From assembly GCA_020633295.1 (NCBI GenBank), contig JACKDW010000001.1, positions 1,213,828 through 1,277,827 of the forward strand: a stretch of 64,000 nucleotides of DNA, written 5' to 3'. How positions within the stretch are numbered: position 1 is the stretch's first letter; each line of letters begins with the position of its first letter. Of this stretch, positions 6,086 through 52,239 are shown piece after piece. The stretch comes from Myxococcales bacterium. Lineage in GTDB: Bacteria; Myxococcota_A; Polyangia; Nannocystales; Nannocystaceae. The position numbers and the translations under genes were made by a program. A model generated the notes under the pieces. That model did not search any database. It had not been told where the DNA came from and saw nothing but the letters and a program-made list of their open reading frames with translations.

Positions 6086-6472
6086 ATGACGCGCAGGGAG
6101 CTGATCAAGGCCGTGCAGGACTCCGTCCGCGAGGCGCTGCCCGAGCTGACGCAGCACGACATCGCCACGGTCGTCGACGCCGCCTTCGAGCAGATCGCGA
6201 CCGCCATGCGCGATGACGGCCGCTACGCGCACCCCGGCTTCGGCACCTTCTCGGTTCGCCGCCTCGCGCCGCGGCCTGGCTTCAACCCGCGCACCGGCGA
6301 GCGAATCCAGGTGCGCGCCTCGACCTCCGTGCGCTTCTCCGCCTCGCGCTCGCTCGTGGAGCGCCTCGGCGTCGCGCGTGCGCCCAGCGACCACGCGGAC
6401 GCGCGCGACCTCGAGAGCGACCTCGAGAGCGACCTCGAGAGCGACCTCGAGAGCGACCTCGAGAGCGACTAG
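6086..6472 (+). CDS. HU/IHF-family nucleoid DNA-binding protein with an acidic C-terminal (DLES)5 repeat tail
   Basis: ATG 6086 preceded by GGAGAG, Shine-Dalgarno (SD)-like ribosome-binding sequence, 6 nt upstream. HU-fold motifs ELIKAV, GFGTFSVRRLAPRPGFNPRTGERIQVRASTSVRFSAS. Confidence 0.85.
   Translation: MTRRELIKAVQDSVREALPELTQHDIATVVDAAFEQIATAMRDDGRYAHPGFGTFSVRRLAPRPGFNPRTGERIQVRASTSVRFSASRSLVERLGVARAPSDHADARDLESDLESDLESDLESDLESD
6407..6466 (+). repeat. Perfect 12-bp tandem repeat (gacctcgagagc) x5 encoding DLES x5 at the C-terminus of the HU-like protein
   Basis: Direct reading of 6407-6466. Confidence 0.9.
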
Positions 6473-6602
6473 CCCGAGGCCTACACCCCCTGCCCGCAGC
6501 GGGGCGCCGAAGCTCAGGACGCGCGCGCGCTCGCGCGTGGTTCTACGATCGCCCGACCCGACCGCGTCCGCGCGCGCGCGACGTCACGCGCGCCTGCCCA
6601 AT

Positions 6603-6631
6603 TGAGCACACAAGCAGACGCTGATACCATC
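6603..6631 (+). promoter_or_regulatory. Candidate sigma-70-like promoter (TTGAGC, 17-bp spacer, TACCAT) upstream of repeat-element copy 1 and sthA
   Basis: Hexamers at 6603-6608 and 6626-6631 with a 17-nt spacer, in the 515-bp HU-sthA intergenic region. Pattern match only. Confidence 0.25.
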
Positions 6632-6662
6632 GCCGCGTCCGATGCAGGAGGTGCGCCGGTCC

Positions 6663-6890
6663 AGGTCTAGCTCGGTGCCCTGCACCAGGGCGGCGTTGCG
6701 CCGCCCGGGCGTACCTCTCCGCATTCATCACAAGGAAGGCTATTCCAGAATGTCGCTGTCCCGAGAAGAGCCCGTAGACGGCGACGGGCTGGAACAACCT
6801 CGCCACTCGAAGTTCCGTACGCCGTCTACGGGCTCTTCTCGGGGCGAATTCAGTGAGCCTTCCATGTCCCAGGTCATGTCGTAGACGACC
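6663..6890 (+). repeat. Copy 1 of a conserved non-coding element with a long hairpin. Core 6726-6875; the variable stem arms 6761-6781 and 6822-6842 form a 21-bp perfect helix. Candidate structured RNA or a MITE (miniature inverted-repeat transposable element).
   Basis: About 150 nt near-identical to 9663-9812 apart from the central stem (for example catcacaaggaaggctattccagaatgtcgctgtcc ... ggcgacgggctggaacaacNtcgccactcgaagttccgtacgccgt ... ggcgaattcagtgagccttccatgtcccaggtc). The stem is entirely different in the two copies yet perfectly complementary within each. Weaker similarity extends about 60 nt upstream. Confidence 0.75.
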
Positions 6891-6986
6891 GCGCGCCTCC
6901 GGCATCGGACACCTCTTCACAACCAGCCACGGACCCCACCCAGGCGAGCCCCGACCTCGTCCGTCGTCGCCAGCAGGAGACACGCA

Positions 6987-8393
<1,407 letters not shown>

Positions 8394-8622: not shown

Positions 8623-9381
8623 ATGTCCGAGTTCCAACTCGCCACGCGCACCTCGATCACCGCGTACTATTCGCGGAGTCAGCTGTTGATCATCGCCGAG
8701 GGCAAGCTGCCGACGCCGGATTGGGAGATCGACATCAGCCAGGATCACAACCAGGCGGCGGTCCCGACGTTTCGACTCTCACGTCGCCCGCGGCCGACCG
8801 ACACCGGCGACGAGGAGACCCCGTTTCGCTACGGCGAGATCTTCACGATCGGCCGCCCGCCCGATCACATCATCGTCCGCCACGTCGACGGCGACGACCG
8901 CGTCCCGGTCGAGTTCACCAACCAGGAGCTCGTCGACATCGTGCTCAGCCTCAGCCTCGAGGACAGCCAGAGCGACGTCCTCGAGATCCCGATGCTCGAC
9001 GACATGGGCGACGAGCCGTCCTCCTCGGTCTACGACTCCGGCCTCCACCGCGTCGAGGTCAACGCGTCCTCCCTGGGCGGCGGCGGAGACGTCATGGTCG
9101 GCCAGGCCATCCCGGCGATGGGCGGGATCAACCTCGACCCGAGCCAGAGCGGCTCGGGCATGCTCAACGACCTCAGCGTCCGCTACCGCGAGTCGGTCGG
9201 CTACTCGAACAAGCTCTCCTTCGACGAGGCCTTCGCCGACGCGCTCAAGAAGCTCCCCCCGCCCGCGATGAAGTTCCCCGACATGATGGAGACCGTCGAG
9301 GTCGTGCACATCGGCGGGACCTTCGGCGGGATCGCGGGCTTCCACCGCCTCGAGGTCCGCATCCGCGCGTACCCCGACTGA
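8623..9381 (+). CDS. Hypothetical acidic cytoplasmic protein (no recognisable domain)
   Basis: ATG 8623 ([11 protein letters not shown]...). Protein-like composition with slightly lower-GC codon choice than the neighbours (tat, agt, ttg, ttt). No signal peptide. Confidence 0.55.
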
Positions 9382-9597
9382 GCGCGCGACGAGATCTCGC
9401 GCCGCCTCCAGCGCGAGCGGTCGGGCCCGCGACCCGACAAAACATGACTCATAAACCAGGTTTCCGCGCGCGCGCGCCGGGAGAAACTCACCCGCGCGCG
9501 CCGGGAGGCGCGGGAAGCTGCGGGAAGCTGTTGATCCGCGCGCCGGAGGCGTGCTATCCGATCAGCACGCGGACGAACTGCTCACCCGACCAGGAGG

Positions 9598-9825
9598 TAG
9601 GTCTAGCCTGATGCCCTGCATCAAGATCGGCGCTGCGCCGATCCGGCATCTTCCATCGCACACATCACAAGGAAGGCTATTCCAGAATGTCGCTGTCCCT
9701 CATATATGCCTCGTACGGCGACGGGCTGGAACAACGTCGCCACTCGAAGTTCCGTACGCCGTACGAGGCATATATGAGGGGCGAATTCAGTGAGCCTTCC
9801 ATGTCCCAGGTCTTGAAGTAGACAT
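9598..9825 (+). repeat. Copy 2 of the hairpin element. Core 9663-9812; stem arms 9697-9718 and 9759-9780 form a 22-bp perfect helix with a different sequence from copy 1.
   Basis: Direct comparison with 6663-6890. Same orientation. Loop and flanks identical except one c/g difference in the loop. Confidence 0.75.
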
Positions 9826-9855
9826 CTTGGTAGTTGAGCTTTTCCGACGCCGCTT

Positions 9856-9910
9856 GCGGCCAGCGAGCCTTTCCCACCCCCTTGGGGCTTCGCTGGCCGC
9901 ACTTTTTTAA
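9856..9910 (+). terminator. Candidate intrinsic terminator immediately downstream of element copy 2
   Basis: gcggccagcgagcc (9856-9869) pairs with ggcttcgctggccgc (9886-9900) with one bulge and a 16-nt loop, followed by cacttttttaa (T-run 9903-9908). Confidence 0.45.
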
Positions 9911-10129
9911 GCGGCTCAAGCTCTTCCCACGTCCGCCCAGTCCGGCCCCCGGTGGCCCTGGCAACGCCGCGCTCGTAGGCCTCAGCCGCGACCTCGGAGT
10001 GCCCGAGGCGAACGGCGGCGTACAGCGCCGCGTCGAGATCCTGCATCGCGCCGGCGCCGTCGCTCGCCTTCATGCGCGCGCTCCCGCGGCGCAGCGTGCT
10101 CGGCCGACGGTAAGGAACCCGAACCCGAG

Positions 10130-10897
10130 CTAGCCGGTGGAGCCCGTGTCCGTGTCGCCGCCGGTCGTCCCGCCGCCGTCCGGCACCCCGGAGCAGTCGG
10201 TCGGGAAGTCCGTGATCGGCACCGGCAGATCGCCGGGCGCCGAGCTGGCGACGCGGATCGCCGAGAAGGTCGAGCCCTCGAGGCTCGCCATCAGCGGCTC
10301 GATGACGTTACCCTCGATGATCCCGCACACGAAGTCCGCGCTCTGGATCGAGCCGACGTAGCGCAGCTCCGTGACGATGTCGCTGCCCGTGATCGGGTTG
10401 GCAGCGCCCGTGACCATGAAGGTCTGATACACGCCGTCGCCCGCCGGGAACGCGTAGCGCCCGTCCTCGTCGACGACGATGTCGGGGATCACGATCGAGT
10501 CGCCGACCGGCGTGCGCGGCGTGTCGATGCTCTGCGGCTCGAGGGCGAGCGGCTGCAGCGTCAGCGTCAGGCGCCCGCCCAGGCCCTCCGGCGTGAACTC
10601 CTGCGTCGCCAGGAACTGCAGCGGGTGCGTCGGGTCGATCACCGAGGCGACGACCATCAGGAACTCGCCCGAGATGTCCTCGAGCTGCCCGCCGAGGTCC
10701 TCCTTCGGGAGCGGGAGGTCCCGCAGCTCCCGGGTGTCGTCGAGGAAGCCGTCGAGCTTGCCCTGCGGATCCGGGCAGCCCGTGGCGGTGAGCGACGCCA
10801 GCGTGAGCGCGCCCGCCAAGCCGAGACGCGCGCGCGTCCCCGCGCGCCCCTGCTGCCTCTGTCCACGCGTCCGCTCTGGCCAAACTTCCTGTTGCAT
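10130..10897 (-). CDS. Lipoprotein, hypothetical
   Basis: ATG (complement) at 10895-10897. Signal peptide with lipobox ...LTLASLTATGC. The C-terminus is Gly/Thr/Asp-rich. The longer track ORF to 11134 is an Arg-rich upstream extension and was rejected. Confidence 0.65.
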   Translation of the reverse strand: MQQEVWPERTRGQRQQGRAGTRARLGLAGALTLASLTATGCPDPQGKLDGFLDDTRELRDLPLPKEDLGGQLEDISGEFLMVVASVIDPTHPLQFLATQEFTPEGLGGRLTLTLQPLALEPQSIDTPRTPVGDSIVIPDIVVDEDGRYAFPAGDGVYQTFMVTGAANPITGSDIVTELRYVGSIQSADFVCGIIEGNVIEPLMASLEGSTFSAIRVASSAPGDLPVPITDFPTDCSGVPDGGGTTGGDTDTGSTG

Positions 10898-17774: not shown

Positions 17775-17860
17775 CGATCGGCGCGCGTCGATCTTCGCTC
17801 GCTTCGCAATCATCGCGTTCCTCCGTCGATCGTCGCGGCGGTCGATCGTCTTCGTGGGAG

Positions 17861-18030
17861 ATCGAGCCTCCAGTCGCTCGTCGTGACGGATCGAGCCTCC
17901 GCGTCGCTCGTCGTGACGGTCGATCGCGGGAGCGAGTGATCGAAGCACGAGCGAGCCTCCGCGTCGCTCGTCGTGACGGTCGATCGCGGGAGCGAGTGAT
18001 CGAAGCGCGAGCGAGCCAGCCTCCGTCGAG
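17861..18030. repeat. About 60-bp tandem direct repeat, two full copies (17893-17952, 17953-18012) plus partial diverged copies, in the ddl-trpS intergenic region
   Basis: gagcctccgcgtcgctcgtcgtgacggtcgatcgcgggagcgagtgatcgaagcRcgagc repeated with a single a/g difference. Not CRISPR-like, as there are no spacers. Confidence 0.85.
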
Positions 18031-50413: not shown

Positions 50414-52099
50414 TCATCGGTCCACCGGCGCGGTCGGGTCCGCGACTGCGCGAAGCATGCCATCATCCGCGCCGAACACAAGCCGCCCGCCTGGAGAAAT
50501 TGCCACGGAGCTGTCGACGTCGGCCGGCAGCTCAATGCGCCAGCGCACGTCGCCCTCGCGCGTGACCGCGTACAGCCGCTCGTCCTGGGCCCCGAAGAAC
50601 AGCGTGCCCTCGGCGTCCAGGACCGGCGTCGACTGAATCGGCGCGCCGAGCTCGAGCGTCCACAACAGCTCACCCGCGCGCGTGAAGGCGTACACGTTGC
50701 CCGCCAGCGTGCTCACGTACACTCGCTCGGTCGGCGCGCGCCGACGCCCAGCCGGGATCCGCGGGTCGATCGCCACGGCCGCGCGCACGGGCGCGCCGAG
50801 CAGCGCCGTCCAGCGGAGCTGCCCGTTCGCGCCCACGGCCACCAGGCGCCCCCCGTCATCGCCGACGTACAGCGTGCCGTCGCCCCCGACCGCCGGCGCG
50901 CTGTCGACGTCGCCGACGAGCTCGACGCGCCAGCGCTCGCGGCCCTCCGGGTCCACGGCGATGAGCCCGGCGCCCTGGGTCCCCACGACGATGTCGCCGC
51001 GCGGCGTGATCACGGGCGCCGCGTAGACGTGCTCGATCTTCGTCGGCGGGAGGTCCTCGGCGGCCTCCTGGTCCTTCGATCCTGTTTTCTTGTTCTTCGT
51101 CGACGTCTTCTTCGTCGACTTCTTCTTCGTCGACTTCTTCTTCGTCGACTTCTTCTTCGTCGACTTCTTCTTCGTCGACTTCTTCTTCGTCGACTTCTTC
51201 GCCGACTTGTTCGATGTCGTCGCCGCCTCCGTCGACTCGTCTCCGTCCGTGGCTCCGTCGGCTCCGTCCTCGGCTCCGCCCTCTGCGACAGCTCCGTCGG
51301 CTCCGTCCTCGGCGCTCGCGTCCGCGGGCGCGCCGTCGAAGCGCCACGCGATCGCGCCGTCTCGCTCGACGCGATAGACCCCGTCCGCGCCCACCACGAG
51401 CGCGCCGTCCACCGCGACCGTCGGGCCGCCGTCGACATCACACCGCACGCCCATCGGGCCGAGCGCGCGCGGGGGATCACAGCGCCCGAGCCGCGTCGAC
51501 CACACGACCGCGCCCGTCCCCACGTCGATCGCGTGGAGCGTGTCCGCGTCGGTGCCGACGTACAGCCGCGCCTCGTCCCCTGGACCCGGGCCGACCGCCG
51601 CCGTGCCCCAGACGACGCCGTCGAGCTGGAGCTCGAGCGCGACGGTCCCGGCGCGCGGGCCCTCGACGACCGCGCACACAAACCGCCCCTGGTGGGCTCC
51701 GACGCACGCGAGCACCTCCTCCTCGACGGTCACGAGCCGCGGCGACGCCGAGATCGCCGCGCCGAGCGAGAGCTCCCATGCGACCGTCGGGGCCGTGCGG
51801 GGACCGCTCGCGGTCGCCGGGTGCGGCAACCCCGGGCCGCCGCGTCGCCAGGCGGGGCCGGGGGACGCGTCGGCGAAGGCCGCCGCGGCTCGCGTCGCGC
51901 CCGGGGACTCGACGACGGCTTCGTCGGCCGGGTTCACGCACGCGCCGCCCTGGCACACCTGCCCCTGCCGACAGTCGGCGTCACGTCGACAGCGCGCCTC
52001 GGGCTCCGTCGTCGTCGCGCTGTCGCGGCACCCGGGGAGCGCGACCAGCAGCAGCCCCGCGCGCAGCCAGGCCCTCGGGGAAATTCCGCGCGTCAGCAC
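50414..52099 (-). CDS. PQQ-like beta-propeller repeat lipoprotein (BamB-like fold) with an internal (KKKST)n low-complexity insert
   Basis: GTG (complement) 52097-52099 preceded by AAGGAG. Signal peptide MLTRGISPRAWLRAGLLLVALPGC. Cys-rich segment CRRDADCRQGQVCQGGAC. Repeated ...LYVGTDADTLHAIDVGTGAVVWS..., ...TLYVGDDGGRLVAVGANGQLRW... blades. The longer ATG 52237 start would leave a 2-bp gap from the divergent gene. Confidence 0.8.
   Translation of the reverse strand: MLTRGISPRAWLRAGLLLVALPGCRDSATTTEPEARCRRDADCRQGQVCQGGACVNPADEAVVESPGATRAAAAFADASPGPAWRRGGPGLPHPATASGPRTAPTVAWELSLGAAISASPRLVTVEEEVLACVGAHQGRFVCAVVEGPRAGTVALELQLDGVVWGTAAVGPGPGDEARLYVGTDADTLHAIDVGTGAVVWSTRLGRCDPPRALGPMGVRCDVDGGPTVAVDGALVVGADGVYRVERDGAIAWRFDGAPADASAEDGADGAVAEGGAEDGADGATDGDESTEAATTSNKSAKKSTKKKSTKKKSTKKKSTKKKSTKKKSTKKTSTKNKKTGSKDQEAAEDLPPTKIEHVYAAPVITPRGDIVVGTQGAGLIAVDPEGRERWRVELVGDVDSAPAVGGDGTLYVGDDGGRLVAVGANGQLRWTALLGAPVRAAVAIDPRIPAGRRRAPTERVYVSTLAGNVYAFTRAGELLWTLELGAPIQSTPVLDAEGTLFFGAQDERLYAVTREGDVRWRIELPADVDSSVAISPGGRLVFGADDGMLRAVADPTAPVDR
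51091..51207. repeat. Perfect 15-bp tandem repeat (tcttcttcgtcgact) x6 (51106-51195) with imperfect flanking copies; encodes (KKKST)n on the minus strand
   Basis: Direct reading. Locally low GC inside a high-GC gene. Confidence 0.9.
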
Positions 52100-52124
52100 C
52101 GTGCGCCAGCTCCTTCCAAGCGCT

Positions 52125-52153
52125 TTGACAGGTAAAACCGGAATTGGTACTCG
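52125..52153 (+). promoter_or_regulatory. Candidate promoter in the divergent intergenic region (perfect TTGACA -35; weak -10)
   Basis: TTGACA at 52125-52130 in a lower-GC stretch between the divergent start codons 52099 (-) and 52240 (+). The -10 is unconvincing. Confidence 0.2.
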
Positions 52154-52239
52154 TTTTCGGGCCCTCGCGGTACAGCGCACAGTCCGCTCGCTTCCCCTTC
52201 GGGAAGCGTTTTTGTCTTTTTGTGCGCGCAGGAGCATGC

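Follow-up and report, generated by a model that had tools for sequence, protein, structure and literature searches.

[quoted passage not shown] In E. coli retrons, such as Retron-Eco1 (Ec86), each RT has a single ncRNA, with which it is co-transcribed. In retrons the priming G usually sits in a TAGC that immediately follows the 5' arm; this G lies at the inner end of the arm helix and it is its 2'-OH that primes reverse transcription (PMC6868368). Type XIII is the clade to which the classic myxobacterial retrons Mx162, Mx65, Sa163 and Ne144 belong; it has an ncRNA structure of its own and is inherited in a largely vertical manner (PMC7736814). The 241-nt precursor of Mx162 gives an msr of 71 nt and an msd of 162 nt, with an overlap of 8 bases (PMC6868368). 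For Retron-Nex1 (Ne160), from Nannocystis exedens, the summary in PMC6868368, which cites Lampson and Rice 1997, describes several duplicated msr-msd repeats that have no RT closer than one kilobase. On the strength of that summary, an RT-less arrangement has already been reported once, in Nannocystis, and Ne160 is the closest precedent for the RNA genes described here.

The locus examined in this report lies in a 64-kb stretch of DNA, the whole of which was analysed and is termed the window, and comprises two copies of a structured element. With Retron-Mxa1 (Mx162), Retron-Sau1 (Sa163) and Retron-Nex2 (Ne144), all of type XIII (PMC7736814), the element shares paired arms, a presumed priming G, msr hairpins and a long msd hairpin, and it is like the Mx162-type retrons in having a precursor of ~240 nt and a DNA of ~160 nt (predicted here). 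Homologues of the window RNA also adjoin the RT_XIII, SWIM_XIII and HEAT-ARM_XIII genes of type XIII retrons. The priming context is TAGC in the window family versus CAGC in Mx162 and Sa163 (PMC6868368). Unlike the Mx162-type retrons, the RNA genes of the window are not contiguous with an RT, they are present as two dispersed copies (relatives have tandem arrays), and they belong to a family most of whose members have terminators of their own. The E. coli retrons share the msr-msd logic and the TAGC around the priming G, but are unrelated in sequence to the window family. As far as the published summary of Ne160 extends, its likeness to the window element consists of the same bacterial family, repeated msr-msd units without an RT and a product of ~160 nt (predicted here), while the Ne160 repeats are in tandem and the window copies are split by two genes. 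Nannocystis punicea contains two tandem copies of the window element, and the summary description suggests that Ne160 belongs to the same family.

Results

Copy 2 and its terminator

The pair of copies was missed by a whole-window repeat finder and was detected by a BLAST search of the region against the window, in which the core of copy 2 (9599-9823) displays 82% identity to copy 1 at 6663-6886 on the same strand. The features of copy 2 are listed below.

9531-9560, + strand: putative promoter-like site of copy 2 (-35 TTGATC at 9531-9536; TG at 9552-9553; -10 CTATCC/TATCCG at 9554-9560)
9581-9838, + strand: copy 2, a probable retron msr-msd RNA gene, with arms, TAGC and hairpins
9581-9605, + strand: 5' arm (a2) of copy 2, from duplex folding of its own 5' and 3' flanks
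9606, + strand: presumed priming (branching) G in the invariant TAGC (GTCTAGC in 38 of 38 aligned copies)
9607-9646, + strand: msr part, with P1 (9610-9614/9618-9622) and P2 (9625-9632/9636-9643), both enclosed by a 3-bp helix
9656-9818, + strand: presumed msd (template) part, its limits set by analogy with Mx162 and type XIII RT-DNA
9667-9678/9793-9804, + strand: P3, within the presumed msd
9685-9688/9785-9788, + strand: P4, within the presumed msd
9696-9725/9751-9781, + strand: P5, the long hairpin, with a stem of free sequence and a conserved tip
9819-9838, + strand: 3' arm (a1) of copy 2, which pairs with the 5' arm
9856-9908, + strand: intrinsic terminator of copy 2 (hairpin 9856-9900, AC, T6 at 9903-9908)

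The terminator hairpin at 9856-9900, GCGGCCAGCGAGCC...GGGGCTTCGCTGGCCGC, has a predicted stability of -30 kcal/mol over 45 nt, and the T6 run (TTTTTT, 9903-9908) starts 2 nt past it. As the T run is present on the + strand only, with no such run opposite, the terminator is oriented for a + strand transcript. The window has a G+C content of ~70% and only nine runs of five or more T in 64 kb, both strands counted; among these nine the most stable upstream hairpin is that of 9903-9908. A simple promoter and terminator scan gave no result, since the hairpin has a 12-nt loop and the scan a loop limit of 8, and was replaced by a custom scan. The hairpin is separated from GTAGAC, which ends at 9823, by 32 nt, and from the 3' arm, which ends at 9838, by 17 nt. 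A stable GC-rich hairpin followed by a T run, the signature of an intrinsic terminator, is thus present at 9856-9908, and provides the predicted 3' end of the transcript. According to the gene calls of the public record, copy 2 is flanked by convergent genes, 8623-9381 (+) and 10130-10819 (-), and no + strand gene lies downstream of it. The preliminary description, which had placed copy 2 between convergent genes and had proposed that a terminator for a + strand transcript follows it within 45 bp, was correct in each of these respects.

A related Polyangia MAG has the orthologous locus (L001), where copy 2 and the terminator persist as one nearly unchanged unit, with few substitutions and with an identical terminator, while the flanks are only 82-85% identical to the window; the element is therefore better conserved than its flanks. 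Right after the terminator the two loci differ by an indel, 233 nt in the window (9910-10130) versus 887 nt in the MAG (L001:3994-4881). This stretch of the window contains a minus-strand ORF remnant (9900-10073) that has no match in Pfam.

A structured RNA family with compensatory changes

A scan of one genome per species with the apical-loop motif returned the orthologous Polyangia MAG locus as its sole match, because the motif is too specific to the window lineage. A 20-nt invariant block, in turn, identified 46 loci in metagenomes, and a profile search of these loci and the window gave 68 matches (full, partial and contig-cut). With the addition of loci fetched later, the set contains 53 full-length copies, 47 of them distinct. 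The family thus has at least 47 distinct full-length copies, from metagenomes and Nannocystis punicea, and is found on both Myxococcota- and Planctomycetota-like contigs. The length of the unit is almost constant, at ~245 nt. Rfam, searched at gathering and at permissive thresholds, contained no matching family for the element, the Rfam msr family included, the only hits being chance microRNA-like ones on the palindrome.

The element is a structured non-coding RNA with very strong covariation. The two window copies are more stable than shuffled controls (z = -6.6 and -7.6) and differ mainly by fully compensated changes, which are located in three helices; a 15-bp stretch of the long hairpin is wholly different between copies 1 and 2 and is perfectly paired in both. 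Across 38 distinct copies, 98.2% of the cells in the 61 predicted pairs are paired, compared with 34-44% in slid controls, where the pairing partners were shifted by 1-3 columns. Changes on both sides occur in 32 of the 61 pairs in this set, and the covariation score is 0.473 versus 0.05-0.08 for the slid controls. When 47 sequences are considered, compensatory changes extend to 36 of the 61 pairs, P3 included. This helix, formed by GGAAGGCU and AGCCUUCC, is invariant among the myxobacterial copies, and covaries once the planctomycete copies are included.

Resemblance to retron msr-msd RNAs

Three features of retron ncRNAs are present in the element, namely paired arms, a TAGC priming context, and msr stem-loops combined with a long and variable msd hairpin. 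Arm duplexes of 15-25 bp are formed in all 38 copies, and the arm sequences vary so as to match their own partner. Cognate arms pair at -19.0 kcal/mol versus -12.9 kcal/mol for non-cognate arms (p=6e-12, 38 copies). The arms of copy 2 pair less well than most (-15.1 kcal/mol, rank 10 of 37). Both msr hairpins, P1 and P2, show compensatory changes. The presumed msd folds into a composite hairpin of ~150 nt in which the stem sequence changes freely and pairing is kept; in P5, 23 of 30 pairs have changes on both sides. A conserved tail, AUGUCCCAGGUC, is located between the composite hairpin and the 3' arm.

The limits of the DNA product can be estimated by analogy. The sequenced RT-DNA of a Clostridium type XIII retron starts just 5' of the 3' arm and stops 4 nt upstream of ACACAUCAUCAGG, the window counterpart of which is ACACAUCACAAGG at 9660-9672. 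The Clostridium and Mx162 analogies agree in suggesting that DNA synthesis would run from 9818 back to a stop near 9656, to give a product of ~160 nt.

Promoter-like sites, copy 1 and predicted independent transcription

Copy 2 is preceded by a promoter-like site that contains TGCTATCC at 9552-9559. The motif TTGATC-N17/18-TGnTA(C/T)C sits 27-40 nt upstream of the conserved AGGTCTAGC in the first copy of nearly every array, and the inner units of the arrays are preceded by a TGnTAnC motif. At the other end, a hairpin and T run are found 35-80 nt downstream of the element in 30 of 44 distinct family copies, including ones located beside retron operons. From the promoter-like motif and the terminator, each unit looks like a transcription unit of its own. 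Copy 1 and the two genes that separate it from copy 2 have the following features.

6602-6630, + strand: promoter-like site of copy 1, read from the sequence (-35 TTGAGC at 6602-6607; TG at 6622-6623; -10 TACCAT at 6625-6630)
6647-6900, + strand: copy 1 (a2 6647-6669; presumed priming G 6670; a1 6882-6900); the next gene starts at 6987
6987-8393, + strand: pyridine nucleotide-disulphide oxidoreductase, SthA/Lpd-like (Pfam Pyr_redox_2, 1e-60)
8623-9381, + strand: famA, hypothetical protein with a predicted dodecin-like C-terminal domain

The promoter-like site of copy 1 contains TGATACCAT at 6622-6630 and is of the same type as the family motif, and the arm duplex of this copy has a stability of -32.5 kcal/mol. 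Downstream of copy 1 no hairpin with a T run was found, either in the window or in L001, and its transcript probably runs on into the flavoenzyme gene 100 nt downstream. Since it has the same promoter type, TAGC, arms and hairpins as copy 2, copy 1 is another such gene, only without a terminator, and is not a riboswitch-like leader. The proposal in the preliminary description that the two copies represent one cis-element and one free RNA is therefore not upheld.

Genomic neighbourhood in the Nannocystaceae

In 15 metagenome loci and in Nannocystis punicea (CP114040.1) the RNA genes occupy a conserved neighbourhood, in which a gene for an FHA protein is followed by those for an SthA/Lpd-like flavoenzyme and FamA, by one to three tandem msr-msd units and by a CDF cation-efflux gene. 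N. punicea has two tandem units at this position between famA and the CDF gene. In the window lineage and L001 one unit precedes the flavoenzyme gene and the other follows famA, and the CDF gene is absent there. In most Nannocystaceae-like loci the copies stand apart from any RT, either singly or in tandem, with three copies at most. The oxidoreductase encoded by 6987-8393 is a conserved neighbour that is syntenic in nine other loci, and its gene is not part of the RNA.

The gene immediately upstream of the RNA gene or genes in the 15 metagenome loci, and also in L050, is famA, homologues of which are confined to Nannocystis and Nannocystaceae-like MAGs, so that the window can be assigned to Nannocystaceae-like bacteria; a protein 100% identical to FamA is annotated in a 'Myxococcales bacterium' MAG. 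The structural model of the protein (AF2 pLDDT 77) consists of an N-terminal beta domain and a dodecin-like C-terminal domain of ~65 residues, which Foldseek matched to many dodecins with a probability of ~1, an E value of ~0.09 and a TM score of ~0.6. FamA was considered as a partner of the retron and rejected in view of this dodecin-like, flavin-related fold and the location of its gene next to that of a flavoenzyme. The predicted fold and the adjacent flavoenzyme suggest a role in flavin or redox biology, and the linkage of famA to the RNA is thus treated as synteny only.

Link to type XIII retron operons

Copies of the element outside the detached loci provide the connection to an RT. In L010 the element is located ~30 nt downstream of a 432-aa RT that matches PADLOC RT_XIII at 6e-166, and this RT is preceded, in one operon, by SWIM_XIII (5.5e-174) and HEAT-ARM_XIII proteins. 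In L014, L016, L031, L053, L054 and L055 the element is 100-300 nt upstream of the first HEAT-ARM_XIII gene; the last three of these loci were fetched through homologues of the HEAT-ARM_XIII protein. All six loci in which the start of a type XIII operon is visible thus have the element upstream of it, and the RT-adjacent L010 is a seventh locus. The homologue through which L053 was fetched is identical to a protein of Singulisphaera sp. Ch08, a planctomycete. The Singulisphaera-like copy upstream of this operon (L053:3664-3818) has a short msd from which the whole long hairpin is absent, and retains the arms, TAGC, small hairpins and tail.

A tblastn search revealed no RT, SWIM or HEAT-ARM_XIII gene in the 64-kb window, and none is present in the 8-kb L001 locus. 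Contiguity with an RT is thus absent in the window and observed for homologous copies elsewhere. Conversely, no element was found within 10 kb of the RT in L048, from Minicystis rosea, where the start of the operon is outside the locus, or in L049. An nhmmer comparison with the five type XIII ncRNAs of a retron census gave a best E value of 0.59, which is not significant, and membership of type XIII is consequently based on anatomy and neighbourhood. It is the operon neighbourhood of the homologous copies that identifies the element as a type XIII msr-msd.

The supplement of PMC10849725 lists, as 'Retron Terminal 1627', a type XIII retron from Enhygromyxa salina, a member of the Nannocystaceae, with an ncRNA that is unlike this msr-msd family and in which no TAGC context or msr hairpins were noticed. 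Possibly the census overlooked the real ncRNA of type XIII retrons in the Nannocystaceae because this RNA lies away from the RT. In L049 (9348-9969) the gap between a SWIM-like gene and the type XIII RT gene is filled by four tandem 159-nt units, which are 99% identical, form near-perfect palindromes (-121 kcal/mol) and each contain GGAGGTCAACGGCTAGA. These units could represent ncRNAs arrayed in tandem that belong to a different type XIII lineage, or else a palindromic repeat that is unrelated.

Discussion

The data argue that copy 2 is probably a self-contained msr-msd RNA gene of type XIII (Mx162/Ne-type) that would provide the template for an RT acting in trans. Transcription would start at the extended -10 promoter, ~35-40 nt upstream of the conserved AGGTCTAGC, and would end at the hairpin and T6 of 9856-9908. 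Pairing of the 5' arm (9581-9605) with the 3' arm (9819-9838) would place G9606, the equivalent of which in copy 1 is G6670, at the end of the helix. A type XIII RT encoded outside the 64-kb window would then prime from the 2'-OH of G9606 and copy the RNA from 9818 back to ~9656, and the resulting branched DNA, a single strand of ~160 nt, would fold into a long hairpin. Copy 1, which has a different hairpin stem, would give rise to a second msDNA species, predicted to match 6720-6881.

It is also conceivable, but on balance unlikely, that the element derives from a retron and is no longer reverse transcribed, having become an RT-independent sRNA or a decaying relic with no function. Such an origin would be consistent with the absence of an RT from the 64-kb window, with the two RT loci (L048 and L049) that have no element within 10 kb, which show that RT and RNA are not always together, and with a promoter and terminator of the unit's own, as is typical of sRNA genes. 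A relic, however, would decay, and an sRNA has no need of a priming context, whereas the detached copies keep the invariant TAGC, a constant length and co-varying arms that end at the G. That these copies retain every retron-specific feature as strictly as the operon-linked ones argues for continued use by an RT and against their being relics. Copy 2 had initially been described as a stand-alone small RNA; its promoter-like motif and terminator agree with an independent unit, but its features are those of a retron msr-msd and not of a generic sRNA.

A mobile element carrying a terminator was also among the readings of the preliminary description. The view that the repeats are mobile, whether spread through msDNA retrotransposition or as MITE-like elements equipped with a terminator, is very unlikely to be correct. 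The title of Lampson and Rice 1997, as cited in PMC6868368, proposes possible retrotransposition for the N. exedens repeats, and four unrelated metagenome contexts contain only the last 40-65 nt of the msd. The full copies, on the other hand, include the promoter, 5' arm and msr, which are outside the msDNA, indicating that they are gene duplications and not cDNA insertions. Their positions are syntenic from the window MAG to Nannocystis punicea, target-site duplications were not seen, and the element has no match in viral contig, phage or plasmid collections.

Msd-end fragments were observed on lower-GC contigs at L012:1471-1533 (=L046), L020:9189-9228 (=L032, L042) and L028:1610-1660 (=L033, L043). 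In these three groups the similarity breaks off at CCCAGGTC or immediately past it, which is close to where the 5' end of the msDNA is predicted. The fragments resemble the 'partial retrotransposed msDNA copy' to which Lampson et al. 2002 refer in their title, and retrotransposition may explain these short sequences. At L002:2599-2658 (=L003, L005) only the 3' ~45 nt of the msd, the 3' arm and the terminator are left, the 5' part having been replaced by other DNA with a conserved 77-aa ORF; related contigs have an intact copy (L008:313-563) with the same 3' flank. An insertion into the RNA gene, or a rearrangement within it, may account for this.

A cis-acting leader or riboswitch, in which the element would be the sensor of a signal, the terminator the expression platform and the controlled gene sthA (copy 1) or, elsewhere, the CDF gene, is hardly credible. 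Copy 1 does lie 100 nt upstream of the oxidoreductase gene, and the array is followed, in 12 loci, by a same-strand gene for a CDF transporter. There is, however, no + strand gene downstream of copy 2 to be controlled, and across the family the element precedes unrelated genes (HEAT-ARM, radical SAM, CDF and oxidoreductase) and is repeated in tandem, each copy with a promoter and a terminator of its own. Element and terminator are a variable distance apart, the spacer between them is unconserved and no alternative anti-terminator pairing was seen; moreover, the sequence of the largest helix is free, which is not what a ligand pocket would show. A small protein gene can be dismissed, for although the two window copies and L001 all keep a 44-codon ORF (9687-9821; copy 1, 6750-6884) open in a common frame, with a Shine-Dalgarno-like motif (AAGGAAGG) ahead of it, and one public record (L052) lists it as a gene for 44 aa, its ATG is missing in most family members (CAGAACTCGC, CAGACTTCAC and others), the halves of its variable region change by base-pair-compensatory substitutions and thus specify unrelated peptides (REEPVD versus LIYASY), and its third-position GC is ~75% versus >90% in real window genes.

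If copy 2 is a type XIII msr-msd gene that is used in trans, a further and more tentative possibility is that the Nannocystaceae-like type XIII retron is split, such that one vertically inherited RT operon serves several msr-msd genes in trans. Were this so, the msr-msd genes would be kept at a fixed site beside redox and metal-efflux genes, and, as each unit has a different but conserved msd stem, several distinct msDNAs would be made per cell. A split retron of this kind would point to a domesticated and possibly non-defence role, and surveys that seek the ncRNA only beside the RT would mis-assign it in this clade.

Beyond what has been described for Ne160, the data presented here add breadth (at least 47 distinct copies), independent units with promoter-like and terminator signals, and a fixed site in the Nannocystaceae. 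Many genomes thereby join a single report from 1997 in showing that the ncRNA genes of one bacterial family can be separate, multiplied and far from an RT. For annotation, the analysis names two intergenic elements, conserved and strongly structured, for which current RNA libraries have no match. With respect to retron biology and editing, the arrangement suggests that a type XIII RT can accept several templates in trans, and the 47 natural variants show which positions are fixed and which parts of the msd stem are free.

Other repeats in the window

Three further repeats were observed in the window. Five tandem 12-nt repeats (CGACCTCGAGAG) at 6388-6469 are located at the 3' end of the gene for an HU-like DNA-binding protein (6086-6472) and, when translated by eye, appear to encode a repeated acidic tail. 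Three 60-nt direct repeats at 17811-18008, two of which are 97% identical, lie between the end of one ORF (17774) and the start of another (18091). At 51059-51246, approximately nine tandem 15-nt repeats (CTTCTTCGTCGACTT) are contained within a minus-strand ORF (50414-52237).
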